This document shows positions 4,029-30,502 of a stretch of DNA of 56,448 bases, in pieces. The stretch lies in the IMG/VR virus record IMGVR_UViG_3300038321_000147, positions 1 to 56,448 of that record; one strand, given 5' to 3'. The stretch's first letter is position 1, and the number at the start of each line of letters is the position of its first letter. This DNA comes from a virus (taxonomy: Duplodnaviria > Caudoviricetes). The position numbers and the translations under genes are program-made. The notes under the pieces were generated by a model, which was not told where the DNA came from, did no database searches, and saw only the letters and a list, made by a program, of their open reading frames with translations.

Positions 4029-4086
4029 TAAAATAAGGATGTACAAATCTATAAACCCAATGGTCTATAGAGACATCCTTATCCTT
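4029..4086 (-). ncRNA. promoter-driven long hairpin RNA or attenuator followed by a T12 tract
   Basis: Stems ATAAGGATGT/ACATCCTTAT and CTATAGACC/GGTTTATAG directly after promoter copy 1; only a 3-codon ORF. Confidence 0.5.
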
Positions 4087-4113
4087 CTATTATACGGCAT
4101 GTTTTTGTTGCGA
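4085..4113 (-). promoter_or_regulatory. repeated phage promoter, copy 1
   Basis: TCGCAACAAAAACATGCCGTATAATAGAA. Confidence 0.75.
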
Positions 4114-4116
4114 TTC

Positions 4117-5307
4117 TTAATTTATCACCCATTTACTTTCATTAAAATTTTCTTTTCTGGTTAATGTCTTTTGGATGGCAATGTCGATTGAACTTAGCGA
4201 AACTAAATGATAATAATATAAAAATTTATATGGTGTATTCATACGATCTATACGACCAGTGGACTGATGTAGGGCCTTGTATGAATATGTTTGTGAATAG
4301 AACACAATACAATCCGTGGTTATACAATTCCAGGCTTCCTGGGCTGCTGTGTACTGGCATAAATATACCCATGATTTAGCATCGGGTAATGTGTCGTGAT
4401 TATGACCATTCCATTCCGCAAATAATAATTTCTTAGACTTACACCATTCACGCAATATATCTAATTCATAATTAAAATTATAAAATATAATTAATCTTGG
4501 ATGTTTATTGTAGATCGTATTCAACGCGTCGATCCTTGATGGATCTGTGTTTACGAGTTTCCTTAGCAAGTAGCAAAGTTGCGATATATCACGGATTGGT
4601 TTATTGTCATAAATGTTCCAACGCCTATCAAACAAAATCTTGTAATTAAATTCATCAAAATCACATATGACATTCTTATGATTCTGGGTGGTTGCTCGAA
4701 CATCAGGCATCTCGACTAAAATGGAATCTCGGAGTTTCAATAATTTTGACACATTGATGTATCGATCGACTTTTGGGTATTTGGTAAACCGGCTCCAAAT
4801 AATATGCTGTCGTTCGAAATCTGTTTTATTTTTGAAGAACCCGTTAGCTACAAATAATGATGCGTACTCGATAAGACTATCGCCAGGTGTTGCTGATAGT
4901 AATATCCATTTGTTCCTTTTGGCAATTTTTAAAAACGAATATGTCCATGCACCATAACCCGTAATTTTTGTCTCGTCAAATATAAATATGGCATTCTCAA
5001 TTTTCTCATATTTTTTAATATTGTTCCACGAGTCGACGATTGTGATTTTGACTGGTACTAATGCGGCTTCGGATAACCAATCATTTTCATCCCTCTTTCG
5101 AGGAGTCGTAATAACATAGATCGGTATATCCTTATTTGGTTTTCTATAGGTGTGACCAGGATATAGAGGTGATTCTCCACCAAGGATCTTTTCGAATATG
5201 AAAACAAGGGAAGTGAGAGTCTTCCCTGATCCAGTACCACCTCTTAGAACGCTCCCGTTATGTAGGCGCTCAATCGCACTAACTTGGTAGTCCGTTAATT
5301 GAATCAA
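4117..5307 (-). CDS. SF2 (SNF2/DEAD-like) DNA helicase
   Basis: YQ, GSGKT, FDE, SATP and QSTGRIDR motifs. Confidence 0.85.
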   Translation of the reverse strand: MIQLTDYQVSAIERLHNGSVLRGGTGSGKTLTSLVFIFEKILGGESPLYPGHTYRKPNKDIPIYVITTPRKRDENDWLSEAALVPVKITIVDSWNNIKKYEKIENAIFIFDETKITGYGAWTYSFLKIAKRNKWILLSATPGDSLIEYASLFVANGFFKNKTDFERQHIIWSRFTKYPKVDRYINVSKLLKLRDSILVEMPDVRATTQNHKNVICDFDEFNYKILFDRRWNIYDNKPIRDISQLCYLLRKLVNTDPSRIDALNTIYNKHPRLIIFYNFNYELDILREWCKSKKLLFAEWNGHNHDTLPDAKSWVYLCQYTAAQEAWNCITTDCIVFYSQTYSYKALHQSTGRIDRMNTPYKFLYYYHLVSLSSIDIAIQKTLTRKENFNESKWVIN

Positions 5308-5328
5308 ACTCTCACCTCCATTTATACT

Positions 5329-5862
5329 TTATTGTAGTCCTCCGCCGCAATGACTATCACACACATCACATTCACCACAGCCGCCAATTGACTCTTGTGC
5401 TGAGTCAATGTATTCAGAATATTTTCTTGCCAATTCATCAACGTATAAAACAAAATATCCCGATTTCAAATACGCTTTAATTCCACTATTACCTTGAACG
5501 TTCCATTCACTACCCTTTATAATTAAATCTATTTGTTCGAACTCCGCAAAATCTAAAAGATTTACGTTATTCTCATTCAAACGGGTCATCTTACCATCAG
5601 ATATCATTACTATATTTGGAGGATAGTTCCCGAAGTTAACTTTAACTGACACAATTGCCTGTGGTGGTTCATCTGGATATGAATCCAACCATTTAATATT
5701 CCAACCGTCTTGTTCCATTTCCTTAGCGATGTCGTCTGGTAAAAATATACAAAAGTTTCGGTTCCCTGCAGGATTATATTTTCCCTCAGCTCCCTCAAAA
5801 TTTCTAAATCCAATTCTTGCATTTTTAATTGTTACTTCCATAGGTTTTTTTTTCTTTGACAT
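5329..5862 (-). CDS. single-stranded DNA-binding protein
   Basis: FRNFEG..YNPAGNRNF and IKAYL pattern typical of phage SSBs; lies between polymerase and helicase; acidic, Cys-rich tail. Confidence 0.6.
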   Translation of the reverse strand: MSKKKKPMEVTIKNARIGFRNFEGAEGKYNPAGNRNFCIFLPDDIAKEMEQDGWNIKWLDSYPDEPPQAIVSVKVNFGNYPPNIVMISDGKMTRLNENNVNLLDFAEFEQIDLIIKGSEWNVQGNSGIKAYLKSGYFVLYVDELARKYSEYIDSAQESIGGCGECDVCDSHCGGGLQ

Positions 5863-5879
5863 AGTTATTCTCCTCTTCT

Positions 5880-9797: not shown

Positions 9798-9799
9798 CC

Positions 9800-10525: not shown

Positions 10526-10565
10526 AAAAATATCCCTCCTTTCAATAAAAATATAGAGAAAGACT

Positions 10566-10898: not shown

Positions 10899-10930
10899 TT
10901 GTTCTCCTCCTATAATTTTAAATATTATAT

Positions 10931-10958
10931 TTCTATTATAGGGTTTGATATCTTTGCA
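10931..10958 (-). promoter_or_regulatory. repeated phage promoter, copy 2
   Basis: TGCAAAGATATCAAACCCTATAATAGAA. Confidence 0.7.
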
Positions 10959-10961
10959 CCT

Positions 10962-13643: not shown

Positions 13644-13670
13644 TTCTATTATAGGGTATGTTTTATTCAT
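13644..13670 (-). promoter_or_regulatory. repeated phage promoter, copy 3
   Basis: ATGAATAAAACATACCCTATAATAGAA. Confidence 0.7.
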
Positions 13671-15046
13671 TAAAACTCCTCCTTCAACCTTTGAACCTCT
13701 AAAAGGACTTTTCTTCCTTTATCGAACTTCTTGGCAAACTCATCTTCTTTTCCTTTTATAAGAGGTGGTCCTAAATATAAACCATCCAAAGGTATCTCTA
13801 ACTTAGTATCAAGATTCACCAAACTTAAAGATAATTTAAAATCCTCAGATGCTTCTTTACCGCCAGTTTCCCAAATATCCTCACCAACACAACCCGCACT
13901 AATAGCCTTTCGAGCGTGAACCGGTCCAAAACCTTCAACACCCTTAATGTTATCTGACTTATCACCTACCAAAGCCTTGTAGACACTATATTTGGCCGCT
14001 GGAATACCACATTCAAGCTCAAAGGCATTACGGTCCAGGAAGAGACCAGGAGCCCTGTAAATCAAAACCCTGTCCCATGCGAGGCATTGTTGTAGATCCC
14101 TATCTCCGGAAAATATCACGACGTCTGTCTTATACTTTAAATGACAGTCACAATTCTCACAAGGAGTTACACACAAACACCTATGACATTTTTCATTTAC
14201 TATACTCGCAATAACATCATCTGCCTCAGCACCGTCGACACTAATAATATCCCAACCTAAGAACCTTATAATATCTTCCAACCCGCTCCTAAATTTTTGG
14301 AATTTATCGTCATTCATAGGCTTTCTATTTCCTTTATAGCCTTCAAAAATATCACAGCGTTTTAATTTTGTTTTGCTCTCACCAGCAAATATCACCTTGA
14401 GAGGAACGCCCCTTTGTTTACTACGCTTTACACATAGACGTAACATATCAAAGAACTTACAATAGGCTACCCAGGCTCTTTTTGACGATATAAACCACGC
14501 CCTATATAATAAATTACTATAATCGACCAATACTAAAGTTTCTTCTGTTCCTTCAACTAAACTTTCTGGTGGTCTAAAATTATTGTTTCTCTTCATCCTA
14601 ACCTTTCCCTTCCTTCCAAATATAACAATCATAGATGGAAATGGAGCTGAATTTACACTATCCCCAAATTTCAATCTCCCTCGAATATAACGAATTTCAA
14701 TATTCTCATGATTGAGGATATAGTCATGAAAACGTTTAGTATCCGTCCTAGCAGGAATTAACATAACTGCCAAATATCCCTTCGCCCCATGCTCATAACA
14801 TTTACGGATCCATTGGTCTTGCATTCCACTGGAATATGGAGGATTACAAAACACCCTTTCGTTATCCCAGTCCTGGATTAGACCATTTTCTTTTTCAGTA
14901 TAATACTTCTCGCATTTAGCTGTTTCGGGTGTACAACAAGGATCCAATGTAAAGTGAAATTCTTCATCGAGCTCGTAAAATAAATCCTGGGGTGTTTCCC
15001 AATCATTCTTACCACTTGAAAATAGTGGATCCAAATTTGTACTCAA
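13670..15046 (-). CDS. DNA N6-adenine methyltransferase fused in frame to a 5'-3' exonuclease (FEN/RNase H-like)
   Basis: N-terminal WETPQ, LDPC, CNPPY, PARTDT; C-terminal VDYSN, EADD, SGDRD, LVGDKSDNIKGVEGFG; internal RBS+ATG at 14596. Confidence 0.8.
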   Translation of the reverse strand: MSTNLDPLFSSGKNDWETPQDLFYELDEEFHFTLDPCCTPETAKCEKYYTEKENGLIQDWDNERVFCNPPYSSGMQDQWIRKCYEHGAKGYLAVMLIPARTDTKRFHDYILNHENIEIRYIRGRLKFGDSVNSAPFPSMIVIFGRKGKVRMKRNNNFRPPESLVEGTEETLVLVDYSNLLYRAWFISSKRAWVAYCKFFDMLRLCVKRSKQRGVPLKVIFAGESKTKLKRCDIFEGYKGNRKPMNDDKFQKFRSGLEDIIRFLGWDIISVDGAEADDVIASIVNEKCHRCLCVTPCENCDCHLKYKTDVVIFSGDRDLQQCLAWDRVLIYRAPGLFLDRNAFELECGIPAAKYSVYKALVGDKSDNIKGVEGFGPVHARKAISAGCVGEDIWETGGKEASEDFKLSLSLVNLDTKLEIPLDGLYLGPPLIKGKEDEFAKKFDKGRKVLLEVQRLKEEF

Positions 15047-17842: not shown

Positions 17843-17866
17843 TACTTTTCCTCCTTCGATTCTTTA

Positions 17867-17894
17867 TCTATTATATAGGAAGATTTTATTGCGA
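17867..17894 (-). promoter_or_regulatory. repeated phage promoter, copy 4
   Basis: TCGCAATAAAATCTTCCTATATAATAGA; identical 28-mer at 18198-18225. Confidence 0.75.
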
Positions 17895-18196: not shown

Positions 18197-18225
18197 TTCT
18201 ATTATATAGGAAGATTTTATTGCGA
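18197..18225 (-). promoter_or_regulatory. repeated phage promoter, copy 5
   Basis: TCGCAATAAAATCTTCCTATATAATAGAA. Confidence 0.75.
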
Positions 18226-19180: not shown

Positions 19181-19203
19181 AAATCCACCTCCTAAAATAT
19201 CAT

Positions 19204-19230
19204 TTCATTATAGGGGACGATATGTCTGCA
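19204..19230 (-). promoter_or_regulatory. repeated phage promoter, copy 6
   Basis: TGCAGACATATCGTCCCCTATAATGAA. Confidence 0.7.
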
Positions 19231-19521: not shown

Positions 19522-19537
19522 TTTTTACTCCTCCTAT

Positions 19538-19807: not shown

Positions 19808-19811
19808 AATA

Positions 19812-20456: not shown

Positions 20457-20469
20457 TTTTTACTCCTCC

Positions 20470-20691: not shown

Positions 20692-20700
20692 AAAATCCTC

Positions 20701-21378: not shown

Positions 21379-21609
21379 TTAGTTTCCTCCATTAGATACT
21401 TCGTTCACTTCATTTGCTGTAAAATTAATCTGAAATACCCGAAGTTTATTTTCTCCATTAATATAACCACTAACATTGGCGTTAGCTATACATCCTCTGC
21501 GTTCGGTGGCAGTCGCCCAGTAATATTCAACCTCTACGATAGCGATCTTATCGCCATTAATTGTAATCTTGGGCATTCCATTATCTATTGTAAAGGATAA
21601 TTTATTCAT
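21379..21609 (-). CDS. hypothetical protein
   Basis: 76 aa with GGAGG RBS. Confidence 0.65.
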   Translation of the reverse strand: MNKLSFTIDNGMPKITINGDKIAIVEVEYYWATATERRGCIANANVSGYINGENKLRVFQINFTANEVNEVSNGGN

Positions 21610-21664
21610 TTACATTCCTCCATTTAATATATTAAACTCTCTGCAAAATTAAGAGGCTAGGCCT

Positions 21665-21976
21665 CTATGGTAATTTCTTTAAATCTCTATATAATTTAAT
21701 AAAATCTTCACTCCATAGGCTAGTTCCTAACCTCTCTTTTGCAAATAAATCTAATTTCTTTTCGTCATTATCCATTTCTTGTATAACGTCACTTTCTAAA
21801 CATTCCATTAGTAAACCTAATCTATCTTCTGAAGTTACAAAACCTTTCAATAAAATATTTATGATATTTGTCATCGAAATTTCCTTTTCTTTAAAAAATT
21901 CATAAACATTTACATCAATTCTTGCACTTACAGTTTGTGTTCCTTTACTAGCATCAATTCTTCTATTATCTTCCAT
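21665..21976 (-). CDS. possible ribbon-helix-helix DNA-binding protein
   Basis: TQTVSARIDVNVYEFFKEKEISMTNIINILL; start corrected to the ATG after promoter copy 7 and RBS. Confidence 0.5.
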   Translation of the reverse strand: MEDNRRIDASKGTQTVSARIDVNVYEFFKEKEISMTNIINILLKGFVTSEDRLGLLMECLESDVIQEMDNDEKKLDLFAKERLGTSLWSEDFIKLYRDLKKLP

Positions 21977-22000
21977 AAATAATCCTCCTATAATTTTATT

Positions 22001-22027
22001 CTCATTATAGGGTATGTTTATCATACG
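22001..22027 (-). promoter_or_regulatory. repeated phage promoter, copy 7
   Basis: CGTATGATAAACATACCCTATAATGAG. Confidence 0.7.
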
Positions 22028-22902
22028 AACCTTTTAAATATCGGTAAATTCAGTGATACTCCACCATTTCTATTCTTCGAATATGAAAAAGCCTCAATCT
22101 CAATATCTTTTCCTATGGGTGAGTTAATCACCATATCGGTACGATCGGCGTTATTTAGCCCACTTCCAACCCTCACTGGAACTGTACACCCAGGAACCTC
22201 GCAAATCAAAGCGGCCACCATACCTTCAATTTTTGTCCCTGGTCTAGCCATTTCAACGTCAACAACCCGACCTACGAACTCTTTAACCTTTTTAACCTTA
22301 AGAAGAGATTTACTACGCCCCGGAATATAAATAGAATCCATGTCCAATAACATCAAACCTTCACCTTTTCTTTTAACAACTTCATCCATTGTTTTCTTTA
22401 AGGTCTCTATATCTGCTCCTTGTATGTTTCCAAATATAGGGACTCTAATGATTGGGTCTTCGTTAGTCCCTCCATTAAAAGTCGAATACAGCTCCGCATC
22501 CCGTTCTCTTGCCAGTCTAAGATCTCCTCCTGGTTTGAATATGTCAAAGCAGATAGCCATGAGGTCTTGTTTGTTATCCGGATATTGTTGACTTGCTTTT
22601 GAATTTGTGTTTTGTCGTAAAACAAACGACGGTACCTGTTTAAAATATAATTCTCTGTCGACCAACTCGCAGTCGTAAACTCTATCCGAGGGCATCCAAG
22701 GAGCCTCGAGATACTCGAATATGTGTATAAGCCACTTGTCTTCAATATTTGTACGACTCCATGCAGTTATAGAACCGTCTGGCGCCTTGTAAAACAATCT
22801 TCGTACCCCATCAATCTTTTCTGACATACGCCAGAGCTTGCCTTCCAAGACAGTATCCGGATAATTGGCAAAGTTCTCACCTAGCATTGGTGTCAATTGC
22901 AT
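22021..22902 (-). CDS. ATP-dependent DNA ligase
   Basis: EKIDGVR (motif I), DCEL, FDI, EGLML, LLKVK, VGSG OB-fold. Confidence 0.9.
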   Translation of the reverse strand: MQLTPMLGENFANYPDTVLEGKLWRMSEKIDGVRRLFYKAPDGSITAWSRTNIEDKWLIHIFEYLEAPWMPSDRVYDCELVDRELYFKQVPSFVLRQNTNSKASQQYPDNKQDLMAICFDIFKPGGDLRLARERDAELYSTFNGGTNEDPIIRVPIFGNIQGADIETLKKTMDEVVKRKGEGLMLLDMDSIYIPGRSKSLLKVKKVKEFVGRVVDVEMARPGTKIEGMVAALICEVPGCTVPVRVGSGLNNADRTDMVINSPIGKDIEIEAFSYSKNRNGGVSLNLPIFKRFV

Positions 22903-22928
22903 AGTGTCTCTCCTTTCTTTAAATATAA

Positions 22929-23066
22929 TTACTCACCAAATTTTGGCGGGATTTGTACACCTTTAAGTGCACATATAATTCTTGTAATTTCCATACCAAT
23001 AGCTCCAATTATAAATATAGATGCGATTGGATGTTTTACCATCGACTCAACAAAATTCTTATTCAT
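22929..23066 (-). CDS. small membrane peptide (45 aa)
   Basis: MNKNFVESMVKHPIASIFIIGAIG...; AAGGA RBS. Confidence 0.55.
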   Translation of the reverse strand: MNKNFVESMVKHPIASIFIIGAIGMEITRIICALKGVQIPPKFGE

Positions 23067-23082
23067 TTCAAATTTCCTTTCC

Positions 23083-23388
23083 TTAAATATAATTGATCAT
23101 TTTCTTTTCTAAAACCTTTATCATCTCTCCGAAATTAGCATAACTTCTCACATTACGCATATATTCAGCTTTTTCCTCTTCCGATAGCCCGTACAAGTCC
23201 TTTAAATATTCAATTTCTTTTAATAGTTTCTCATTTTGTCGTTGTAAATCTCCATTTTCATGATCGAGTTCGGCTATTAATACGTGTCTCGATTGTAATT
23301 GATCGTTTAATTTATTTATCTGTTGTCGGTATTGAACTTCTTTTTCTTTGAAATGTTTTTCGGCTGCGTTAAATTTCTTTCCTTTCAT
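23083..23388 (-). CDS. coiled-coil hypothetical protein
   Basis: Start corrected to MKGKKF (AGGAGGAG RBS). Confidence 0.7.
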   Translation of the reverse strand: MKGKKFNAAEKHFKEKEVQYRQQINKLNDQLQSRHVLIAELDHENGDLQRQNEKLLKEIEYLKDLYGLSEEEKAEYMRNVRSYANFGEMIKVLEKKMINYI

Positions 23389-23410
23389 AATACTCCTCCT
23401 TCTAAACATA

Positions 23411-23432
23411 AAAGAGAGCCTAAGCTCTCTCT
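23411..23432 (-). terminator. conserved GAGC-TTAG-GCTC intrinsic terminator
   Basis: AGAGAGAGCTTAGGCTCTCTTTT followed by ATGTTT. Confidence 0.75.
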
Positions 23433-23635
23433 TAACCACTAATTTGTTTCATCATTATTTCTCGAGATTTCTCTTGAAACTTCGCCAATAATTCAGGATT
23501 ATTGATTATCTTATCGATTCCCATGCCGATTAAGACCATTTCATAATGTCTATAACCAAGCAAGACTACCGTCGCAATACCAACTCCTCCTAAAAAATAT
23601 TTCAATTTTTTCTTTCGTAAATCCTTATCTTCCAT
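23432..23635 (-). CDS. small membrane protein (cassette gene)
   Basis: YFLGGVGIATVVLLGY; GGAGGTG RBS; start corrected. Confidence 0.7.
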   Translation of the reverse strand: MEDKDLRKKKLKYFLGGVGIATVVLLGYRHYEMVLIGMGIDKIINNPELLAKFQEKSREIMMKQISG

Positions 23636-23654
23636 GACACACCTCCATATTAGT

Positions 23655-23681
23655 TTCATTATAGGATCTGTTTAAACGGCA
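23655..23681 (-). promoter_or_regulatory. repeated phage promoter, copy 8
   Basis: TGCCGTTTAAACAGATCCTATAATGAA. Confidence 0.7.
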
Positions 23682-23693
23682 TAACCCTTTTTT

Positions 23694-23722
23694 AATATAA
23701 AAGATTAGAGCCTAAGCTCTAT
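23694..23722 (-). terminator. conserved GAGC-TTAG-GCTC terminator
   Basis: TAGAGCTTAGGCTCTAATCTTTTATATT. Confidence 0.7.
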
Positions 23723-23883
23723 CTATACTTGTCCATTTCATTATGTATCATTTCGTTAGTCATCTCGATTTGCTTCTGTGCAACCTTGTATTGTGTCCAA
23801 GACCATAACGCTACCATAAGCATCATTACAATCCACATCACCATTCCAATTGCTAAAAGTATTTCACAAATTGCCATTTTCAT
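23719..23883 (-). CDS. small membrane protein (~54 aa, not in ORF track)
   Basis: MAICEILLAIGMVMWIVMMLMVALWSW...; lies between promoter and terminator. Confidence 0.65.
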   Translation of the reverse strand: MKMAICEILLAIGMVMWIVMMLMVALWSWTQYKVAQKQIEMTNEMIHNEMDKYR

Positions 23884-23905
23884 CCTCCATAATGTTTAAT
23901 ATTCT

Positions 23906-23932
23906 TTCATTATAGGATATGTTTATATTACA
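23906..23932 (-). promoter_or_regulatory. repeated phage promoter, copy 9
   Basis: TGTAATATAAACATATCCTATAATGAA. Confidence 0.7.
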
Positions 23933-23967
23933 ATAAAAAGAAGAGAGCCTTTGTAGCTCTCGTCTTG

Positions 23968-24105
23968 TTACAACTTCATTTCTAAAATATGTCTTCTTCT
24001 GTTTTCTTTCTCTTTATTATTATAATATTGTTGTATCGTATCTCCTAAATACTCTGTCAACAACATCACTCCTAACACCAATCCAAATATCATTAATATT
24101 CTCAT
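23968..24105 (-). CDS. small membrane protein (45 aa, not in ORF track)
   Basis: MRILMIFGLVLGVMLL...; AGGAGG RBS; GAGAGC/GCTCTC terminator at 23935-23961. Confidence 0.65.
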   Translation of the reverse strand: MRILMIFGLVLGVMLLTEYLGDTIQQYYNNKEKENRRRHILEMKL

Positions 24106-24123
24106 ACTTCCTCCTAAGTTTTA

Positions 24124-24151
24124 TTCTATTATAGGAGGTGTTTATACTGCA
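24124..24151 (-). promoter_or_regulatory. repeated phage promoter, copy 10
   Basis: TGCAGTATAAACACCTCCTATAATAGAA. Confidence 0.7.
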
Positions 24152-24493
24152 TTATTTAAGATCGGTATTTAACTTAATAATTCTATCGATTTCCGTTGTA
24201 ACATTTCCGCCATTTCTACCATAGTGGCTATTGATTAATATCTGAAGAAATCTCCTCGTTGTAGTGTTAATAACAACACAAGTGTTATAATTAGGACATT
24301 CATCAGTGCACATTTGACTGCAACATGCTATAAGTCCGTCCTTAATCATTATGCGTACAGGTTTATCCTTCTTATCCATTGGTTCTTTATTTCGAAAATA
24401 AGGTTTATCTTCAGTTAAATAACATTTAGAACTATTTGGGCAAAACATTGTCTTATAATATATGCAATCTTGACAGTTCTTTATCACTATCAA
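24152..24493 (-). CDS. Cys-rich hypothetical protein
   Basis: Two Cys clusters; AGGAGG RBS. Confidence 0.65.
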   Translation of the reverse strand: MIVIKNCQDCIYYKTMFCPNSSKCYLTEDKPYFRNKEPMDKKDKPVRIMIKDGLIACCSQMCTDECPNYNTCVVINTTTRRFLQILINSHYGRNGGNVTTEIDRIIKLNTDLK

Positions 24494-24507
24494 TTTCCTC
24501 CTTTTAG

Positions 24508-24535
24508 ATATAAAGAAAAGAGCCTAAGCCCTTTT
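24508..24535 (-). terminator. conserved GC-TTAG-GC terminator
   Basis: AAAAGGGCTTAGGCTCTTTTCTTTATAT. Confidence 0.7.
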
Positions 24536-24796
24536 CATCTCTATTAACATTTCTGTCAATGTTTGATCCATTAATTTTACATTATAATTGAATTCATTAA
24601 TTTTCAAATCTATATCGTCCAATCTGTCTTTTATTGCTTCAACATCATTATTATTTCCAACTAAAATATTTTTTACGCTTCTTAATATTTTCATACCATT
24701 TAAAATATCATCATCCTCGCTATTCAATAAATCAGCTTCGCTAATAATTAAATTCCCTAAAATATTCACATCTCTTTCAAATTCACATTTATCCAT
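24524..24796 (-). CDS. coiled-coil hypothetical protein
   Basis: 90 aa with AAGGAG RBS. Confidence 0.7.
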   Translation of the reverse strand: MDKCEFERDVNILGNLIISEADLLNSEDDDILNGMKILRSVKNILVGNNNDVEAIKDRLDDIDLKINEFNYNVKLMDQTLTEMLIEMKRA

Positions 24797-24818
24797 TGGT
24801 TCTCCTTTTAAATATAAA

Positions 24819-24895
24819 TGAAAGGGCGAGTATCTCCAGATCTAGCCTTTCGACCGCTGGTAGCTATCTTACCTAGCAGTTTACCTCTCCTTTCA
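24819..24895 (-). ncRNA. promoter-driven structured small RNA (~77 nt)
   Basis: Ends pair (TGAAAGG/CCTTTCA); internal stems; GAAA loop; TTTATATTT tail; no ATG ORF. Confidence 0.55.
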
Positions 24896-24918
24896 TTAAA
24901 GGATATGTTTTAATTGCA
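24892..24918 (-). promoter_or_regulatory. repeated phage promoter, copy 11 (TTTAAT variant)
   Basis: TGCAATTAAAACATATCCTTTAATGAA. Confidence 0.65.
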
Positions 24919-24928
24919 TTCTCAAAAG

Positions 24929-25014
24929 TGAAAGAGCATGGCTAGTGGCTTCGAACCACGTCTCCGGTCGCCCGGCGAGTTACCATTACTCCATGCATTT
25001 ATCATGCTCCTTCA
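24929..25014 (-). ncRNA. tRNA-like small RNA lacking an anticodon loop (~86 nt)
   Basis: D-arm GAGT-AATGGTA-ACTC, CCGG-GCGA-CCGG, T-arm GTGG-TTCGAAG-CCAC, closing stem TGAAGGAGCATG/CATGCTCTTTCA. Confidence 0.6.
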
Positions 25015-25037
25015 TTATAGGGTGTGTTTTACTTGCA
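25011..25037 (-). promoter_or_regulatory. repeated phage promoter, copy 12
   Basis: TGCAAGTAAAACACACCCTATAATGAA. Confidence 0.75.
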
Positions 25038-25250
25038 ACAGATTAAAGCGAAACCCTTTGCGAATTGACCTCTTTTATTTCTTGCTCGTACGATAATCTT
25101 ATAAGGCCATGATTTCAATCTGCCGGATTTAGCCTCAGCCTCCACCCTGGTGTCAAAAGTATGTATTTCAACTCTCTTGGTTCCTTCCGGTGCCGCTAAT
25201 ATCACCTTAGCATACCTTTTAACTTCTGGTAATAATTCTTTCTTTTTCAT
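25029..25250 (-). CDS. basic hypothetical protein
   Basis: 73 aa; C-terminal RARNKRGQF. Confidence 0.65.
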   Translation of the reverse strand: MKKKELLPEVKRYAKVILAAPEGTKRVEIHTFDTRVEAEAKSGRLKSWPYKIIVRARNKRGQFAKGFALICCK

Positions 25251-25278
25251 TTTCTTCTCCCTTATTTGAAATGTGTTT

Positions 25279-25306
25279 AAAATATAAAATAAGAGCCTAA
25301 GCCCCT
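25279..25306 (-). terminator. conserved GC-TTAG-GC terminator
   Basis: AGGGGCTTAGGCTCTTATTTTATATTTT. Confidence 0.7.
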
Positions 25307-25427
25307 ATTCATCCTTTGTTAAACTTACCTCATTCTTTATGTCAATAGTTATCTTATTACTGTCTGTCGTTTTTTCATCATACTCAATACTCACCACAAA
25401 ATAATTACTATCCACTACTATTTTCAT
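25305..25427 (-). CDS. small hypothetical protein (40 aa)
   Basis: Start corrected to MKIVV (GGAGGT RBS). Confidence 0.6.
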   Translation of the reverse strand: MKIVVDSNYFVVSIEYDEKTTDSNKITIDIKNEVSLTKDE

Positions 25428-25452
25428 AAATACCTCCAAATAAGTTATTCTA

Positions 25453-25479
25453 TTCATTATAGGGTATGTTTTTATGTCA
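25453..25479 (-). promoter_or_regulatory. repeated phage promoter, copy 13
   Basis: TGACATAAAAACATACCCTATAATGAA. Confidence 0.7.
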
Positions 25480-25520
25480 TAAAGATCAAAATATAACATA
25501 AAAACCTTGAAAAATAGCTG

Positions 25521-25632
25521 AAATCGACGTAGAGTCCATAGAATCCATTTTAACGCATTTTAACACCTTTCCCGATACTTAATATTAAGACTTAAATATC
25601 TTTCTTTAAAACGCATTCTATGACATCGATTT
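25521..25632. repeat. imperfect intergenic inverted repeat
   Basis: AAATCGA..CATAGAAT..TTTTA paired with TAAAA..ATTCTATG..TCGATTT. Confidence 0.45.
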
Positions 25633-25666
25633 TCTAGGATTTCTTAAAAATTAAGGAAAAGAGGCC

Positions 25667-25936
25667 TTAAACAGCCTCATCTCCTTTTTCAACAGTTATT
25701 TCTTTGAGTTTCTTTCTTTCCTCTGCAAATTCAACGATTTGGTCATCAATATAATCGCCAATCTTTCCACTAAAATAATACCCTATAGCAAAACCACCTA
25801 TCTTTGTCGATACTTTCTTTAAAGTACTCGGCACCTGATTAGGTTTAATAGCCTTTAGCGCATCACTTACAATTTCCCCGACACCAAGCGATACTACAAA
25901 TCCCAATGCATTCCTCACTAATTCAAAGTTGTTCAT
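25667..25936 (-). CDS. small membrane-associated protein
   Basis: 89 aa with two glycine-rich hydrophobic segments; own promoter and terminator. Confidence 0.7.
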   Translation of the reverse strand: MNNFELVRNALGFVVSLGVGEIVSDALKAIKPNQVPSTLKKVSTKIGGFAIGYYFSGKIGDYIDDQIVEFAEERKKLKEITVEKGDEAV

Positions 25937-25958
25937 AAAACCCTCCTTTCAAATTAAC

Positions 25959-25985
25959 CTCATTATAGGCTATGTTATCTCTGAG
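25959..25985 (-). promoter_or_regulatory. repeated phage promoter, copy 14
   Basis: TCAGAGATAACATAGCCTATAATGAG. Confidence 0.6.
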
Positions 25986-26388
25986 TATGGTCTGTGACCA
26001 TCATATTAACCCTTGGGTTATTAGCCCACAGTCTTTCCGCCTCTTCTAATGCCTTATTGATGATTGAATCTAAATTATCCTCGGTGATGTACTTCTTATA
26101 TTCATCGGGGATTCTTTTATACAATTCATCGATAACATAACTTCTCTTCAGGGTACCAGTCCCTCCACCAAATTGTATTTCCGCATCTGTGACTAGAACG
26201 AGTGCTATTGGTACAAGATTGGTTAGTAATCTAGTTATGTAGGCCATCTTTTCACCCATAGACATCTTTTCAAATATCGGACCGTATTTGGCCCTCCATT
26301 TCGTAAGGCCCGTCATAACACTCGCAAATAATAAAATTACCACTAAAATATCCTGCCAGTGGCGGGCAATAAATAATAATACTTGCAT
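25975..26388 (-). CDS. holin-like membrane protein
   Basis: N-terminal TM; LVTDAEIQFGGGTGTLKR resembles LL-H-type phage holins. Confidence 0.5.
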   Translation of the reverse strand: MQVLLFIARHWQDILVVILLFASVMTGLTKWRAKYGPIFEKMSMGEKMAYITRLLTNLVPIALVLVTDAEIQFGGGTGTLKRSYVIDELYKRIPDEYKKYITEDNLDSIINKALEEAERLWANNPRVNMMVTDHTQR

Positions 26389-26400
26389 CTTCTTTCTCCT

Positions 26401-27015
26401 TTATCTACTAATATTAATCACACCATTACCTGTAAAATATAAATGGTTATCAGGTATGGTTTGACTTTCAGGTTCATACGTGTCATAAGAACGACACCAC
26501 TCTTTTACGATTTTAAGTGAAATATCACTAACTTCTGGTAAACCACCCGTCCACCTTCTCATGGGCGAAAACTGTCCAGGCGCCCAAATAACTTCCTCAA
26601 CTGTATCTTGAAATACATCAGAATTAACTCTATTCATTACAACATTTAACACCAAAGATATTTGTTCGTAGTTATCTTGATTGTGAAAGTCAACATCGTA
26701 TTCTCCATCGCCATCGACGTACTTAGAACCTGATAACAATGCCGCCATTAAATACACTTCATCATCTGTAAATCCATATCTAGGTTTTATCTCAGGTATA
26801 GCTATCTCTTCAAGTGTATATTCTTTTTCAGGCTCCTTTGTCACATATTCGATTCTTATAATAATTGGATCGGGGTATATGACCGTAATGGTCTGTGGTT
26901 CAGGATTTAGACCCTTAACTAACATTACAGTGTTAAATGTAAGTAATATCCAAAATATAATTCTTAATAGTGTCTCTATCCATATGTACGATGATTTATC
27001 CTGTTGTGCATTCAT
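26401..27015 (-). CDS. membrane-anchored SleB/Hydrolase_2-like cell wall hydrolase
   Basis: N-terminal TM; VVMNRV, TVEEVIWAPGQF, LYF. Confidence 0.7.
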   Translation of the reverse strand: MNAQQDKSSYIWIETLLRIIFWILLTFNTVMLVKGLNPEPQTITVIYPDPIIIRIEYVTKEPEKEYTLEEIAIPEIKPRYGFTDDEVYLMAALLSGSKYVDGDGEYDVDFHNQDNYEQISLVLNVVMNRVNSDVFQDTVEEVIWAPGQFSPMRRWTGGLPEVSDISLKIVKEWCRSYDTYEPESQTIPDNHLYFTGNGVINISR

Positions 27016-27019
27016 AATA

Positions 27020-27253
27020 TCATTCCTTTTCTACTTTTATTTGTAGAGCTTCTACAGTGATTGTTATTTTAATTGGATCTGGAATTGAGCCTGGTTTCGA
27101 TATATCCTCCACTCTACCATCGCCATAAAAAATTGTTTGGAATTCAGATGATTCCCTTGGAATCTCTATAGTTGTTTTAAGGTTTTTGACATCCCCATTT
27201 AAACCTCTTTGAATCAATATATTAATGATTCTATCTGTTATTTTCGTTTTCAC
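27020..27253 (-). CDS. hypothetical protein
   Basis: 77 aa; AGGAGG RBS with GTG start. Confidence 0.65.
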   Translation of the reverse strand: MKTKITDRIINILIQRGLNGDVKNLKTTIEIPRESSEFQTIFYGDGRVEDISKPGSIPDPIKITITVEALQIKVEKE

Positions 27254-27288
27254 AATTTTCCTCCTAGGATATAAAAGGAGAAGAGTTG

Positions 27289-27570
27289 TTAAACTCTTCC
27301 TTTCGGTATCAAGCTAAATGCTTTAGACCTTACAATATCCAATTTCTCATAATTTAGTACCAATACTATACTACCTAGACTAATCAAACCACTGAATAGC
27401 GCATCCGGACTTATTCTCCATGTTGGTTTCAACATTTCATTGTAAGTCTGATACTGCTTATTTAGTGTATCCCATTCTTCTTTGGTAATATCATTCCTGC
27501 ACATCTTTGAGAACGTTGCATCTCGTTCCTCTTTGATTTGTGCTTTTCTACCTTTTCGCTTTGTTCTCAT
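27289..27570 (-). CDS. membrane protein (cassette gene)
   Basis: ISPDALFSGLISLGSIVLVLNYE...SKAF. Confidence 0.7.
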   Translation of the reverse strand: MRTKRKGRKAQIKEERDATFSKMCRNDITKEEWDTLNKQYQTYNEMLKPTWRISPDALFSGLISLGSIVLVLNYEKLDIVRSKAFSLIPKGRV

Positions 27571-27588
27571 AACTTTTCCTCCTTTTTA

Positions 27589-27616
27589 TTCTATTATAGG
27601 CTAAGTTATTCTAGCA
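27589..27616 (-). promoter_or_regulatory. repeated phage promoter, copy 15
   Basis: TGCTAGAATAACTTAGCCTATAATAGAA. Confidence 0.7.
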
Positions 27617-27621
27617 ACTCA

Positions 27622-28401
27622 TCATCTGTAAAAGCCACCAGGGCCATATTTTGGATGTACGTCCATATCAACAATCAAATATACTTTTCCGTTTTTATCA
27701 AGTTGTGTACTATAAAAGGGTTCGATCTGACCTTTATCTAGATTAAATCCTACACTCTCGCCTAGTGGTATCGGGTCAAGACCTATTGCATAATAATACT
27801 CGTTAAGGTCTAGCCACAGTTCACTCATTAACTCGTAATTTAGATCATTGATCTTTTGACGAATTGTCTCGTGGCTAGATGTGAACGGGCGTCCTGACAA
27901 CTTGTCAAGGCATAGAATATCACCACCACCTGTTATAACAATTTTACTCTCATCGATCGGGGTTTTCTCGATATACTCCTTAGCCACCCCATCTTTTATT
28001 GCCGTATCTTTAGCTTTACCAAGTTGTTTAACTACTTGCGTTTTATAGTCTCTGAAAGCTGTTTCACTTATTGTATAAAGTGCTGCAAGTGCCGTGTTAC
28101 GCTTGGTACTAATAGTATTCGCACCTATAATACATCCTATAGATGTTAAACCAACAATGCCGGCTGGAATATAACATTTCCAGGTTAGTTTAAACTTATC
28201 CATGGCGGTGACATCAACAAAGTTTTTCTCCTTACGATAATGTCGTTCGTCTTCAATCAGTCCAATCGCTACGGGTGTTGCTCTCCCAGTCAGAATGGCG
28301 GTAGATACAAGGCCTGCACACCCAAGCCCTGTTAAAATATGTGGACTGTTTTTAGAAATTACACCCCCGAGATTTTTTGCGACTGCTTCTATTTTATTCA
28401 T
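27622..28401 (-). CDS. DUF6353-like membrane-anchored protein, paralog of 16539-17489
   Basis: NSPHILTGLG...RAT...RNTALAALY. Confidence 0.7.
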   Translation of the reverse strand: MNKIEAVAKNLGGVISKNSPHILTGLGCAGLVSTAILTGRATPVAIGLIEDERHYRKEKNFVDVTAMDKFKLTWKCYIPAGIVGLTSIGCIIGANTISTKRNTALAALYTISETAFRDYKTQVVKQLGKAKDTAIKDGVAKEYIEKTPIDESKIVITGGGDILCLDKLSGRPFTSSHETIRQKINDLNYELMSELWLDLNEYYYAIGLDPIPLGESVGFNLDKGQIEPFYSTQLDKNGKVYLIVDMDVHPKYGPGGFYR

Positions 28402-28402
28402 A

Positions 28403-28573
28403 TTAAATTTCTCCTCTTCTAGCCATCAGCATAATTCTATAAACCTCTTCGGTCGTTTCGGCTCTCTTTATTTGGAATATAACTTCATCAGAGTAACAAA
28501 GTTGTGAGGCTATTTTAATACTATCTTTTTTACATAATTTGAGTTCATTCATCTCAGCTCTTTTATCCCCCAT
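28403..28573 (-). CDS. small hypothetical protein (56 aa, not in ORF track)
   Basis: MGDKRAEMNEL...IASQLCYSDEVIFQIKRA; AAGGAG RBS. Confidence 0.6.
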   Translation of the reverse strand: MGDKRAEMNELKLCKKDSIKIASQLCYSDEVIFQIKRAETTEEVYRIMLMARRGEI

Positions 28574-28587
28574 TATGAATTTCTCCT

Positions 28588-28881
28588 TTATCTCACAAAG
28601 AATATCTTTCTTCCATCTAATATGGTCACAAGCGCATCCTTAAACTCAACACCTTTTTCAGTTAATATTGTCTTAATTTCAGATATAGGCATATCTAGTG
28701 GAAAATCATCCAAATTAATACTTTCGAATATAGATACTTTCCCACTCTGAATTTTACCATTGAGTAATTTTAAGGCTTTAAATTTCCCGTAGTATTTATA
28801 CCCAACAACCGTAGCACAAATACCTCCGACAATAAGTATAGGAACCTTATACTCTTCCCAAACCTTTTTAACTTTTAACAT
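28588..28881 (-). CDS. membrane-anchored hypothetical protein
   Basis: ILIVGGICATVVGY. Confidence 0.7.
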   Translation of the reverse strand: MLKVKKVWEEYKVPILIVGGICATVVGYKYYGKFKALKLLNGKIQSGKVSIFESINLDDFPLDMPISEIKTILTEKGVEFKDALVTILDGRKIFFVR

Positions 28882-28946
28882 AATTTCCTCCTTATAGTTT
28901 TTATTTTTAAAAATATAAATAATTAGATTTATATCTCTAATTACCT

Positions 28947-28974
28947 CTCATTATAGGGCATGTTTTTGATGCGA
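28947..28974 (-). promoter_or_regulatory. repeated phage promoter, copy 16
   Basis: TCGCATCAAAAACATGCCCTATAATGAG. Confidence 0.75.
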
Positions 28975-28998
28975 TTAAAGAAAGGATATTTAATCCTT

Positions 28999-29175
28999 TC
29001 AATCTCTATAAAGATATTCATCATCTTCTGCTATGTATTTTAATCTTCTTGTCATTCGTCTCCTTGCCGAATCGTCCTCTACTACTTTCTTTAGTGTCCA
29101 TATACTGAACCTAAATCCTGCTATAAAAGATGATACTGCTATTGCCAAACAACCAATAATTAATTGTAATTTCAT
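28999..29175 (-). CDS. small membrane protein (58 aa), paralog of 29503-29679
   Basis: MKLQLIIGCLAIAVSSFIAGFR...; AAGGAGG RBS. Confidence 0.7.
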   Translation of the reverse strand: MKLQLIIGCLAIAVSSFIAGFRFSIWTLKKVVEDDSARRRMTRRLKYIAEDDEYLYRD

Positions 29176-29194
29176 AATAATACCTCCTTATTTA

Positions 29195-29222
29195 TTCTAT
29201 TATAGGGCATGTTTTATTAGGA
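29195..29222 (-). promoter_or_regulatory. repeated phage promoter, copy 17
   Basis: TCCTAATAAAACATGCCCTATAATAGAA. Confidence 0.7.
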
Positions 29223-29235
29223 AAAGAAAGAGAGA

Positions 29236-29346
29236 TTAATTTCTCCCTCGCATTTCTCTTACGAATATCCATATCAACCATAAACCTCCTGTTAACACAG
29301 TTAGTAATATGTCGAATAGGAAACTTCTCAACCCATACGTTCTCAT
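29236..29346 (-). CDS. small membrane peptide (36 aa)
   Basis: MRTYGLRSFLFDILLTVLTGGLWLIWIFVREMRGRN; GAGGAG RBS. Confidence 0.7.
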   Translation of the reverse strand: MRTYGLRSFLFDILLTVLTGGLWLIWIFVREMRGRN

Positions 29347-29371
29347 AATTTCTCCTCTCTTTTTATACTAT

Positions 29372-29399
29372 TTCATTATACGATATGTAAATGTTGCGA
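29372..29399 (-). promoter_or_regulatory. repeated phage promoter, copy 18
   Basis: TCGCAACATTTACATATCGTATAATGAA. Confidence 0.75.
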
Positions 29400-29473
29400 A
29401 AAGTGAGGCTTTTAAATGCGTTTTAACGAACGATAATTTTGTTTTGATATAAATGTACCATTGGATTGTGGAG

Positions 29474-29504
29474 AATATAAAAGAAAAGAGCCTAAGCCCC
29501 TTCT
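29474..29504 (-). terminator. conserved GC-TTAG-GC terminator
   Basis: AGAAGGGGCTTAGGCTCTTTTCTTTTATATT. Confidence 0.7.
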
Positions 29505-29679
29505 AAAACCAAGAAGTTCTACTATATTGTATTTCATCATCGTACTTTATTTTTCTCAGCTTTGATTTAAATTGTGCATCCTTCACAGCTTTTCTTGAGA
29601 GCATAATCGCTACCCTAAAACCAGCCATGAATGATGCCAATGCTATTGCAAAACATCCAATAAATAATTGCCATTCCAT
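29503..29679 (-). CDS. small membrane protein (58 aa), paralog of 28999-29175
   Basis: MEWQLFIGCFAIALASFMAGFR...; AAGGAGG RBS. Confidence 0.7.
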   Translation of the reverse strand: MEWQLFIGCFAIALASFMAGFRVAIMLSRKAVKDAQFKSKLRKIKYDDEIQYSRTSWF

Positions 29680-29699
29680 AAATATAATTCCTCCTTATG

Positions 29700-29758
29700 T
29701 ATTCTATTATAGGGTATGTTTAGTTGGGATAAAGAAAAGAGCCTAAGCTCTATCTTTT
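29700..29758. repeat. 59-bp direct repeat copy A (terminator + promoter copy 19)
   Basis: Identical to 29978-30036. Confidence 0.9.
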
Positions 29759-29965
29759 TCTATAATCTTCAGATTCGTATAGATAATAACCTATAAAGTT
29801 CCGTAACCAAATAATTGGCCATAATAGTATCTGTAGTAGACATATCACTCCAACACTCTTCTTAGCTCTATATCTAAGATGCGTGATTTCGGAATAAATA
29901 TCCTCCCACTGAACCAATAATCCAATTATGTAAATTCCTAACCATATATATTTTACCATTTTCAA
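29750..29965 (-). CDS. small membrane protein (cassette gene)
   Basis: Two hydrophobic segments; flanked by the 59-bp repeats. Confidence 0.7.
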   Translation of the reverse strand: MKMVKYIWLGIYIIGLLVQWEDIYSEITHLRYRAKKSVGVICLLQILLWPIIWLRNFIGYYLYESEDYRKR

Positions 29966-29977
29966 ATCCTCCTTTAA

Positions 29978-30036
29978 TATTCTATTATAGGGTATGTTTA
30001 GTTGGGATAAAGAAAAGAGCCTAAGCTCTATCTTTT
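29978..30036. repeat. 59-bp direct repeat copy B (terminator + promoter copy 20)
   Basis: Identical to 29700-29758. Confidence 0.9.
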
Positions 30037-30227
30037 ATCTTCCTCATTATCCATTTGAATCTCGCGTAATACCATAGTTTAACTACTGGATATAATATTA
30101 ATCCAACTGGTAAAGCTATTGTGAACCATATAAGTGATACCCATTTCGGTACCTTCTTATTAGTTAACAATATCAATTCCTGGTGAACCCTATCAAATTC
30201 ATCCTTAGTCTTTCTAAATATCTTCAT
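30021..30227 (-). CDS. small membrane protein (cassette gene)
   Basis: WVSLIWFTIALPVGLILYP. Confidence 0.7.
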   Translation of the reverse strand: MKIFRKTKDEFDRVHQELILLTNKKVPKWVSLIWFTIALPVGLILYPVVKLWYYARFKWIMRKIKDRA

Positions 30228-30250
30228 CTCGATCTCCTTTCAAATCTGTT

Positions 30251-30278
30251 TTCATTACAGGGTATGTAAATATTGCGA
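30251..30278 (-). promoter_or_regulatory. repeated phage promoter, copy 21 (TGTAAT variant)
   Basis: TCGCAATATTTACATACCCTGTAATGAA. Confidence 0.7.
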
Positions 30279-30316
30279 AAAAATAAGACCCTTTGAAAAC
30301 TTTTCAGGGTCTTATT
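30278..30316 (-). terminator. strong hairpin terminator between the structural and cassette regions
   Basis: AATAAGACCCT/AGGGTCTTATT 11-bp stem with T tract. Confidence 0.7.
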
Positions 30317-30354
30317 AAAGGAGGAGTTATATCCCTAATGGGTTAATTAAAATA

Positions 30355-30479
30355 TAAAAGATAAATGGGCTGCTCAGTTCACCCTTGTCCCTCTATATAC
30401 TTCACTCTTCGGTTATGGCATTTTCCGTTCGATTTAACGACCACGTGAAGTCCCTCAATAAAGTTCTTTTTACCTTTCA
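30355..30479 (-). ncRNA. candidate promoter-driven structured RNA (~125 nt)
   Basis: End pairing AAAGGTAAA/TTTATCTTT, internal ACTTCAC/GTGAAGT, TTTTATATTTT tail; only ~20-codon ORFs. Confidence 0.4.
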
Positions 30480-30502
30480 TTATATACCAAGTTTTTATTG
30501 CA
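30476..30502 (-). promoter_or_regulatory. repeated phage promoter, copy 22
   Basis: TGCAATAAAAACTTGGTATATAATGAA. Confidence 0.65.

Follow-up and report, generated by a model that had tools for sequence, protein, structure and literature searches.

On the current view, single-chain two-barrel RNA polymerases (YonO, QDE-1-like) preserve a likeness to the enzyme from which all cellular RNA polymerases descend. The present analysis concerns a 28-nucleotide (nt) motif that occurs 22 times in a complete phage genome (record IMGVR_UViG_3300038321_000147; 56,448 bp, one contig), together with a predicted polymerase of this class, a protein of 957 amino acids (aa) encoded by the same genome; below, "the window" denotes this whole stretch of DNA. 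For YonO of the Bacillus prophage SPbeta, the available passages of the original study report one mapped start site and state that the promoter sequence was undetermined (Forrest et al, 2017, PMC5467207). The two systems are alike in having a single-chain two-barrel phage polymerase with a DxDGD loop, encoded just upstream of the structural block, and they differ in that the late genes are read by YonO in a single operon (PMC5467207), whereas the motif described here covers early and replication genes and not the structural block. A further comparison is offered by Thermus phage P23-45, for which passages of the relevant paper describe a virion polymerase, gp96, with an AT-rich motif and a non-virion polymerase, gp64, with a GC-rich motif (PMC10770324). 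The likeness, as far as these passages go, lies in two-barrel polymerases with their own motifs before pre-early and early genes, in motifs that travel with the enzyme among relatives, and in the delivery of one of the two polymerases in the virion. It is drawn without any claim of sequence relationship: gp96 is fused to the tape measure protein, whereas the 957-aa protein is separate, and the P23-45 promoters are backed by transcription start site and chromatin immunoprecipitation data, whereas the present motif is known from sequence alone. The polymerase of the window also differs from YonO in its family (PHROG 4291) and in the presence of helix-turn-helix (HTH) domains at both ends.

Promoters of the T7/SP6 type are contiguous blocks of ~25-28 nt in which a T/A-rich segment precedes a purine-rich start, and they are found in many co-oriented copies with short leaders. 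The motif shares the contiguous block, the T/A-rich segment, a purine-rich putative start, the co-orientation of its copies and the short leaders; it differs in that the polymerase here is unrelated to the T7 family and in that the start position is inferred from sequence. Middle promoters of T4 combine a MotA box with a sigma70 -10 element. The motif resembles them in its -10-like hexamer and in a conserved box about 12-13 nt upstream in place of a -35 element, and differs from them in that MotA/AsiA homologues were not found here, in the loss of the key A in two lineages, and in its conservation across host phyla.

The 957-aa protein belongs to the family of the signature gene of the 1706 / FP_oengus / actinophage supercluster, a group of Actinobacteria and Firmicutes phages. 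A preprint had predicted this family, which matches RdRP PF05183 in HHpred, contains a DxDGD loop and bears HTH domains at either end, to be an RNA polymerase; its available passages describe no promoter, and the word 'promoter' occurs 0 times in them (bioRxiv 10.1101/842583). A paper on Microbacterium phages places Camille and Count in this supercluster, and no such motif is mentioned for them in its available passages (PMC7302621). Literature searches on YonO-like, two-barrel single-subunit and phage 1706 promoters, and on the string TATAATGAGAC, returned no description of the motif, and no paper with a promoter for this polymerase family was found. The YonO paper leaves the promoter open; here, a 28-nt candidate promoter is present in 6 to 22 copies per genome alongside a polymerase with DNA-binding domains of its own. 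Cultured members of the group grow on Lactococcus, Arthrobacter, Gordonia, Streptomyces and Microbacterium, which makes the promoter question directly testable.

A strand-specific motif before early genes

The preliminary description of this DNA had reported 22 copies of a bipartite minus-strand motif within 4085-30502; the copies are 28 bases long and follow the consensus T(C/T)GCAA-N2-AAACAT-NCCC-TATAAT-(A)GAA. The motif is visible by eye once every minus-strand TATAAT is listed with its context, and an iterative position weight matrix (PWM) scan recovered 22 strong sites; all of these are minus-strand sites, and their hexamers range from 4089 to 30479 in plus-strand coordinates (Table 1). 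With each site defined as the hexamer, 4 nt downstream and 18 nt upstream, the span is exactly 4085-30502, identical to that reported before. The motif holds ~32 bits of information in total. The hexamer columns contain T in 22, A in 20, T in 22, A in 22, A in 22 and T in 22 of the 22 copies; C at -7 is invariant (22/22), the two bases right after the hexamer are A or G only, and GC stands at -17/-16, 15 nt before the hexamer, in 14 of the 22, the same figure as in the preliminary description. The A at position 2 is lost in two copies, as had been noted, through the variant hexamers TTTAAT at 24895-24900 and TGTAAT at 30254-30259, and TAAT is kept in 22/22; the positions given earlier for these two, 24892 and 30251, include the GAA.

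In two-fold cross-validation all held-out sites (11+11) scored at least 15.6 bits. At a threshold of at least 10 bits, the two halves gave 22 and 23 matches on the coding strand against 1 on the opposite strand, and 100 dinucleotide shuffles gave means of 0.6 and 0.5 matches, with a maximum of 3. One weaker additional match, at 35764..35791, passes one of the two cross-validation halves and is compatible with chance. The copies are close to genes: in 16 of the 22, a start codon led by a Shine-Dalgarno (SD) sequence lies 18-36 nt downstream. The SD distance does not discriminate between possible RNA starts, as a sigmaA-type start would still include most SD sequences.

The motif does not have the geometry of a sigmaA promoter, and on this point the earlier account holds. 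It had stated that no TTGACA sits at 17 nt; at spacers of 16-18, none of the 22 copies reaches even 4/6 matches to TTGACA, and the best match averages 2.4 in the motif copies versus 2.5 over all 135 TATAAT in the genome. The TG of an extended -10 element (at -3/-2) is likewise found in 0/22, and the conserved T(C/T)GCAA box lies 13 nt upstream of the hexamer. Matches to a sigma-70-type promoter are not enriched over shuffles anywhere in the genome (72 vs 78.9 +/- 9.6, 76 vs 77.1 +/- 8.9, and 62 vs 50.9 +/- 7.8), and no other promoter class is apparent in it.

Several of the units headed by the motif follow terminators. Terminator-like hairpins are enriched between 18900 and 38000 (32 vs 9.2 +/- 3.2 in shuffles), and a terminator lies directly before the motif in five copies by the listing criterion and in about nine by eye on the folds; an automatic flag for abutting terminators returned 0/22, the minimum free energy (MFE) folds having absorbed the T-runs. 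One terminator stem-loop, GCTTAGGCTC, recurs seven times on the minus strand in 19000-30030.

Conservation of the motif with the polymerase

The assignment of the motif to a phage RNA polymerase, implied in the preliminary description, receives strong comparative support: seven relatives from two phyla share the motif and the HTH-flanked putative polymerase. Full-length homologues of the polymerase occur in 249 phage records, from Arthrobacter, Gordonia, Streptomyces, Lactococcus, Curtobacterium, Microbacterium, Rhodococcus, Faecalibacterium, Bifidobacterium and gut contigs. The relatives compared were Lactococcus 1706, FP_oengus, Mudcat, RosaAsantewaa, Gravy, Camille and BitterVaud1, whose hosts are, in this order, Lactococcus, Faecalibacterium, Arthrobacter, Streptomyces, Gordonia, Microbacterium and Bifidobacterium. 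The expression CGC-N7-ACA-N5-hexamer matched the coding strand of the eight genomes 5, 1, 5, 7, 8, 11, 9 and 5 times (window first, BitterVaud1 last), a total of 51 matches against 0 on the opposite strand. The PWM built from the window only found 11 coding-strand matches in 1706, 5 in FP_oengus, 7 in Mudcat, 6 in RosaAsantewaa, 12 in Gravy, 8 in Camille and 7 in BitterVaud1, with a single opposite-strand match in the seven relatives, in FP_oengus; the mean in shuffles, which cover the first six relatives, was at most 1.6. PWMs trained on each of six relatives themselves gave 12, 14, 7, 6, 11 and 8 sites, with 0 on the opposite strand and 0 in structural modules, and the structural block is free of motif copies in every genome compared. 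Two polymerase-less control phages, Enterococcus SZ1 and Lactococcus LW31, had 0 regular-expression matches and two marginal PWM matches that lack the CGC box. Motif and polymerase thus occur together in 8/8 polymerase-bearing genomes, and the motif in 0/2 controls. This co-occurrence test is weaker than it looks, because the phage collection has no close relative without the polymerase; the polymerase and the fused primase-polymerase occupy practically the same records (249 vs 252 full-length).

In the architecture common to these phages, six variable bases separate CGC(A/G) from (A/T)ACA, another five bases lead to a T/A-rich hexamer, and (A)GA comes last. In the actinophages Gravy and RosaAsantewaa the motif extends past the hexamer with GAGACCCC. 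The hexamer is CTTTAT-like in FP_oengus, where A at position 2 is found in 0/14 sites, and TTAAAT or TTATAT in 4/6 RosaAsantewaa sites, with A at position 2 in 2/6. It is unlikely that the motif is read by a host sigma factor alone, because the boxes keep their spacing across two phyla while the most critical base of the -10 element is lost in two lineages. A copy also stands in front of the polymerase operon in the window (4089), FP_oengus and Mudcat. The motif is a real, strand-specific and gene-proximal element without sigmaA geometry, conserved with the polymerase in phages of Firmicutes and Actinobacteria.

The identification of the 957-aa protein as a polymerase is based on its profile match to phrog_4291 (E=0, 1062 bits, residues 218-955) and on its catalytic DxDGD loop, which binds metal in two-barrel RNA polymerases and here reads GADFDGD at 556-562, in which D558, D560, G561 and D562 are invariant in 23 sequences. 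HTH domains are found at both ends, where Sigma70_r4_2 (89-109) and Sigma70_r4 (910-951) score above the Pfam cut-offs, among other HTH families. The Pfam family RdRP PF05183 gave no match at E<=0.01, and no relative in the PDB was found by sequence. A Foldseek search of the PDB with the AlphaFold model placed QDE-1 at each of ranks 1-10, ahead of RDR2 and of cellular RNA polymerases (largest subunits), at weak scores.

Candidate readers of the motif

We propose that the 22 copies are probably promoters of the phage's own single-chain two-barrel RNA polymerase rather than host sigmaA promoters. Among the eight non-structural proteins conserved in 6/6 relatives (tblastn), recognised DNA-binding domains are found in the polymerase only. 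Its terminal HTH domains, of which two score as sigma-70 region 4-like, would allow it to recognise duplex DNA; one HTH may contact the CGC(A/G) box and another the (A/T)ACA box, the T/A-rich hexamer would serve as the melting region, and RNA would start at the purine-rich (A)GA directly after it. The enzyme, probably carried in the virion and injected, would read the early and replication region (30.5 to 4 kb) in short units of promoter, gene and terminator, with copy 22 (4089), which a strong hairpin terminator follows, controlling the polymerase operon. In a circularised or concatemeric genome, this operon could run into the structural genes, which have no motif copy of their own. The hairpin at 4030..4085, between copy 22 and a GTG start at 3999, is by its predicted fold a terminator or attenuator of the polymerase operon and lies 30 nt before the first gene of that operon. 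Nothing convincing emerged as an alternative late signal at the genome ends or in the late intergenic gaps of the window; control of read-through at the copy 22 hairpin is a possible late switch.

As the motif also precedes the polymerase's own operon, a chicken-and-egg problem arises. An injected virion polymerase would resolve it and would fit the position of the motif before the earliest genes. Injected virion RNA polymerases are known from N4 and crAss-like phages, as well as from P23-45. The homologue in phage 1706, orf75, has been deposited as a 'structural protein' (GenBank EU081845.1). Virion delivery is plausible because of this label, and orf75 aligns with the 957-aa protein over its full length at 34% identity (E 2e-146). 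The 2008 paper on phage 1706 is said to have used virion mass spectrometry. The gene that follows the polymerase gene encodes an 88-aa protein, which holds this place in 6/6 relatives (tblastn) and is a possible cofactor.

The position of the RNA start can be approached through three units without an open reading frame (ORF) near the promoter, which were examined by RNA folding (after hexamers 25014, 24895 and 4089). The preliminary description had placed the start of the terminal stem at the end of the motif in all three. This is the case for the first two, in which the base right behind the hexamer opens the helix, and not for the third, where the hairpin begins at the fourth base. The unit after 25014 folds into a tRNA-like cloverleaf closed by an 11-bp terminal helix, with a T-arm (GUGGUUCGAAGCCAC), a D-like arm and a central arm that is very short. 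Neither ARAGORN nor Rfam (at gathering thresholds) called anything in the genome, this cloverleaf included, and its exact pattern had 0 matches in IMG/VR; three relatives that keep the unit were located there via the DUF6353 protein. These have a much longer central arm and a change of the terminal helix from C8-G to U8-A, and their fold likewise runs from base 1 (z -3.99). The tRNA-like RNA could be a decoy or mimic of host tRNA. For the unit after 24895, the fold is not significant in the window (z -0.82), and a relative reaches z -4.60. A start next to the hexamer is favoured, because a sigmaA-type start 6-8 nt downstream would leave little of the 5' arm in either of the first two helices; this is a hint, drawn from predicted folds, that +1 lies at the (A)GAA adjoining the hexamer. 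The ORF-less unit behind copy 1 is possibly a non-coding early RNA.

Several observations weigh against a dedicated phage polymerase, or against parts of the scheme proposed for it. The hexamer is a perfect TATAAT in 20/22 window copies, in all Mudcat copies and in 10/11 Gravy copies, and host RNA polymerase could use the motif because TATAAT is a perfect sigmaA -10 element. The units end in hairpin and T-run terminators, which are typical of bacterial RNA polymerase. The AlphaFold model of the 957-aa protein is mediocre: its predicted local distance difference test (pLDDT) value is 67.9, and residues 240-422 stay under 50. Its Foldseek matches score weakly, with a best E of 1.3e-3 and a template modelling (TM) score of 0.2. 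The label 'structural protein' is one depositor's annotation, which the ReqiPepy6 note repeats by similarity only. FP_oengus carries an integrase, and a host-read entry point is needed at least in temperate members, because a prophage cannot rely on an injected enzyme. Only one compensatory pair, at helix position 8, supports the terminal helix of the cloverleaf, and it would be retained by a sigmaA-type start too; the other pairs never vary. DUF6353, phrog_4079 or the 88-aa protein, conserved in all relatives, could be the true readers of the motif. Finally, transcript ends, enzyme assays and binding data for this polymerase family were not found in the literature.

The main rival takes up the first of these observations: host sigmaA holoenzyme would use TATAAT as its -10 element, and a phage factor bound to the CGC and ACA boxes would replace the -35 element, by sigma appropriation or as a class II activator. 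The perfect hexamers, the bacterial-type terminators at the unit ends, the position of the box, 13 nt from the hexamer and thus resembling MotA-box spacing, and the several uncharacterised proteins conserved in all relatives all agree with it. Nevertheless, no MotA, AsiA or sigma family was recognised among 78 ORFs compared with PHROGs and 43 compared with Pfam, a search that leaves room for remote analogues. Moreover, the earliest genes of all have the motif in front of them, at a stage when no newly made factor could be present; A at position 2 is present in only 0/14 FP_oengus and 2/6 RosaAsantewaa hexamers; and a discriminator would not usually show the conservation that continues beyond the hexamer, as GAGACCCC, in Gravy and RosaAsantewaa. 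We therefore regard a host holoenzyme with a phage factor as unlikely, while it is the alternative that deserves the most attention.

Under another proposal, host sigmaA would read the copies as ordinary -10-only promoters, and the duplication of promoter-terminator cassettes would have left the similarity upstream. Such duplication occurs, as copies 3 and 4 share 45 identical bases upstream and, judging from the repeats, promoters as well as terminators appear to spread as cassettes; the -10 element is also perfect. This origin does not account for CGC and ACA boxes held at a fixed spacing in two phyla, where the other intergenic sequence is unrelated, nor for a TG or a -35 element in 0/22 copies or the loss of A at position 2 in two lineages, and we consider it very improbable. 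The idea that the motif is not a promoter at all and is instead a repressor operator, a site of replication or recombination or, in 5' leaders, a signal at the RNA level has the least to commend it, for although HTH proteins can be repressors and the conserved (A)GAA/GAGACCCC part could be transcribed, the copies are strictly on the coding strand and 18-36 nt before start codons in 16/22, directly follow terminators and head ORF-less structured RNAs, and no other detectable promoter class could drive these units.

Should the copies be promoters of the two-barrel polymerase, this would explain how one transcription programme is kept across hosts of very different G+C content, and could provide a possible orthogonal expression system for Gram-positive bacteria. 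It can be hypothesised, more tentatively, that a virion-packaged QDE-1-like polymerase with sigma-region-4-like HTH domains enters the cell together with the DNA and, without a sigma factor, recognises a bipartite promoter in duplex DNA, made up of the CGC box, the ACA box and a T/A-rich melting hexamer, with RNA synthesis beginning next to the hexamer, and that the same pair operates in Firmicutes and Actinobacteria phages. If this speculative, virion-packaged and sigma-free version were true, the pair would form a transcription system that is compact and independent of the host, and no promoter would have been defined earlier for this class of enzyme.

Gene order and further features of the window

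All long ORFs are on the minus strand. Read along that strand, the genes for packaging, head and tail occupy 56.4 to 30.5 kb together with a subtilase-type lysis gene; the next 26 kb hold many small genes along with those for replication (DNA ligase, Dam/5'-3' exonuclease, a primase-polymerase of 1319 aa, an annealing protein and a helicase); and 4.0 to 0 kb encodes a VRR-Nuc-like endonuclease, a Cas4-like exonuclease, the 957-aa protein and the 88-aa protein. A megablast search with 20 kb of the genome against the phage collection gave no match.

Table 1. Copies of the motif and other mapped features of the window (plus-strand numbering; scores are PWM bits)
Feature	Position	Strand	Score	Remarks
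Copy 1	30475..30502	(-)	30.8	TTGCAA-N13-TATAAT-GAAA; overlaps subtilase gene stop
Copy 1 unit	30285-30478	(-)		~190 nt, no ORF; strong hairpin and T-run at end; first after lysis gene
Copy 2	30250..30277	(-)	36.3	TGTAAT; SD-led ATG 26 nt downstream, 68-aa ORF
Copy 3	29980..30007	(-)	40.1	directly behind terminator AGAGCTTAGGCTCT-TTTCTTT
Copy 4	29702..29729	(-)	38.4	duplicate of copy 3, same terminator upstream
Copy 5	29371..29398	(-)	33.6	ATG 28 nt downstream
Copy 6	29195..29222	(-)	37.9	behind terminator; ATG 23 nt downstream
Copy 7	28946..28973	(-)	37.3	gene start 68 nt downstream
Copy 8	27589..27616	(-)	36.8	ATG 22 nt downstream
Copy 9	25958..25985	(-)	26.9	ATG 25 nt downstream
Copy 10	25452..25479	(-)	33.9	ATG 28 nt downstream
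Copy 11	25010..25037	(-)	35.9	heads ORF-less tRNA-like RNA unit
Copy 12	24891..24918	(-)	32.1	TTTAAT; structured leader or ORF-less unit before gene starting 24796
Copy 13	24124..24151	(-)	35.3	ATG 22 nt downstream
Copy 14	23905..23932	(-)	38.0	behind terminator; ATG 31 nt downstream
Copy 15	23654..23681	(-)	30.1	ATG 22 nt downstream
Copy 16	22000..22027	(-)	31.6	DNA ligase gene end; ATG 27 nt downstream
Copy 17	19203..19230	(-)	33.7	ATG 26 nt downstream
Copy 18	18197..18224	(-)	31.2	ATG 24 nt downstream
Copy 19	17866..17893	(-)	29.8	ATG 27 nt downstream
Copy 20	13644..13671	(-)	26.2	Dam/5'-3' exonuclease gene end; no good ORF start within 70 nt
Copy 21	10931..10958	(-)	31.1	ATG 36 nt downstream
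Copy 22	4085..4112	(-)	39.9	precedes endonuclease - exonuclease - RNA polymerase operon
Weak extra match	35764..35791	(-)	23.3	hexamer TACAAT at 35768, inside minor tail protein gene
tRNA-like cloverleaf RNA	24930..25013	(-)		ORF-less; MFE -32.9, z -3.46
Hairpin behind copy 22	4030..4085	(-)		then T-run (4017-4029); MFE -25.7 kcal/mol, z -5.45, 0/200 shuffles as good
Predicted single-chain two-barrel RNA polymerase (QDE-1/YonO-like)	288..3161	(-)		957 aa; PHROG 4291
88-aa protein	22..288	(-)		phrog_4303, E 5.6e-33; follows RNA polymerase gene

G/C-rich palindromic elements are present at both genome ends (1-45 and 56400-56448): GGGGGAGGGGG...CCCTCCCTCC close to where the 88-aa gene ends, and CCCCGGGGG at the opposite end. 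No exact terminal repeat of at least 9 bases is shared between them, and they are possibly cos-type ends.

The early and replication region contains further genes of interest, all on the minus strand. A single ORF (13670-15046) fuses a Dam-type N6-adenine methyltransferase domain to a 5'-3' exonuclease (FEN-like) domain. The protein encoded at 19812-20456 matches Pfam Tad3, a type I Thoeris inhibitor (E 1.7e-35), and by this match its gene is likely an anti-defence gene. The C-terminal part of the protein at 18322-18975 matches the dATP/dGTP diphosphohydrolase N-terminal domain (PF18909, E 1.7e-15), a domain known from phages with modified adenine; other genes of a modified-adenine pathway were not noticed in the genome. 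Two DUF6353 paralogues are encoded at 16539-17489 and 27622-28401 (E about 1e-65 each); DUF6353 is present in 6/6 relatives, and FP_oengus has three annotated copies.

In the head module, the proteins encoded at 51565-52791 and 52927-53239 (minus strand) each carry a 25-residue DUF7211 motif, HxGIxGxKWGVRR. Their placement between the terminase and portal genes suggests that the DUF7211 proteins are internal or ejected virion proteins. A third DUF7211 copy is interrupted where the reading frame changes at seven consecutive G; this could reflect a sequencing error, a pseudogene or a programmed shift. By eye, the N-terminus of the polymerase (RHYGTPRHSGRYPWGSG) resembles the DUF7211 motif of the two head-module proteins, and a shared virion-targeting signal was considered on this basis. 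It was not supported: a Pfam scan of the first 45 residues of the polymerase returned nothing at E<=10, and a profile-profile comparison yielded a probability of 0.3%, with the alignment falling in a different region.

The tail module includes a gene for an amidase/endolysin-like protein (44860-45759, minus strand), and the last gene of the late block encodes a subtilase with a Cu_amine_oxidN1 domain (30505-31626, minus strand); together they form an unusual pair of lysis or wall-degrading functions.

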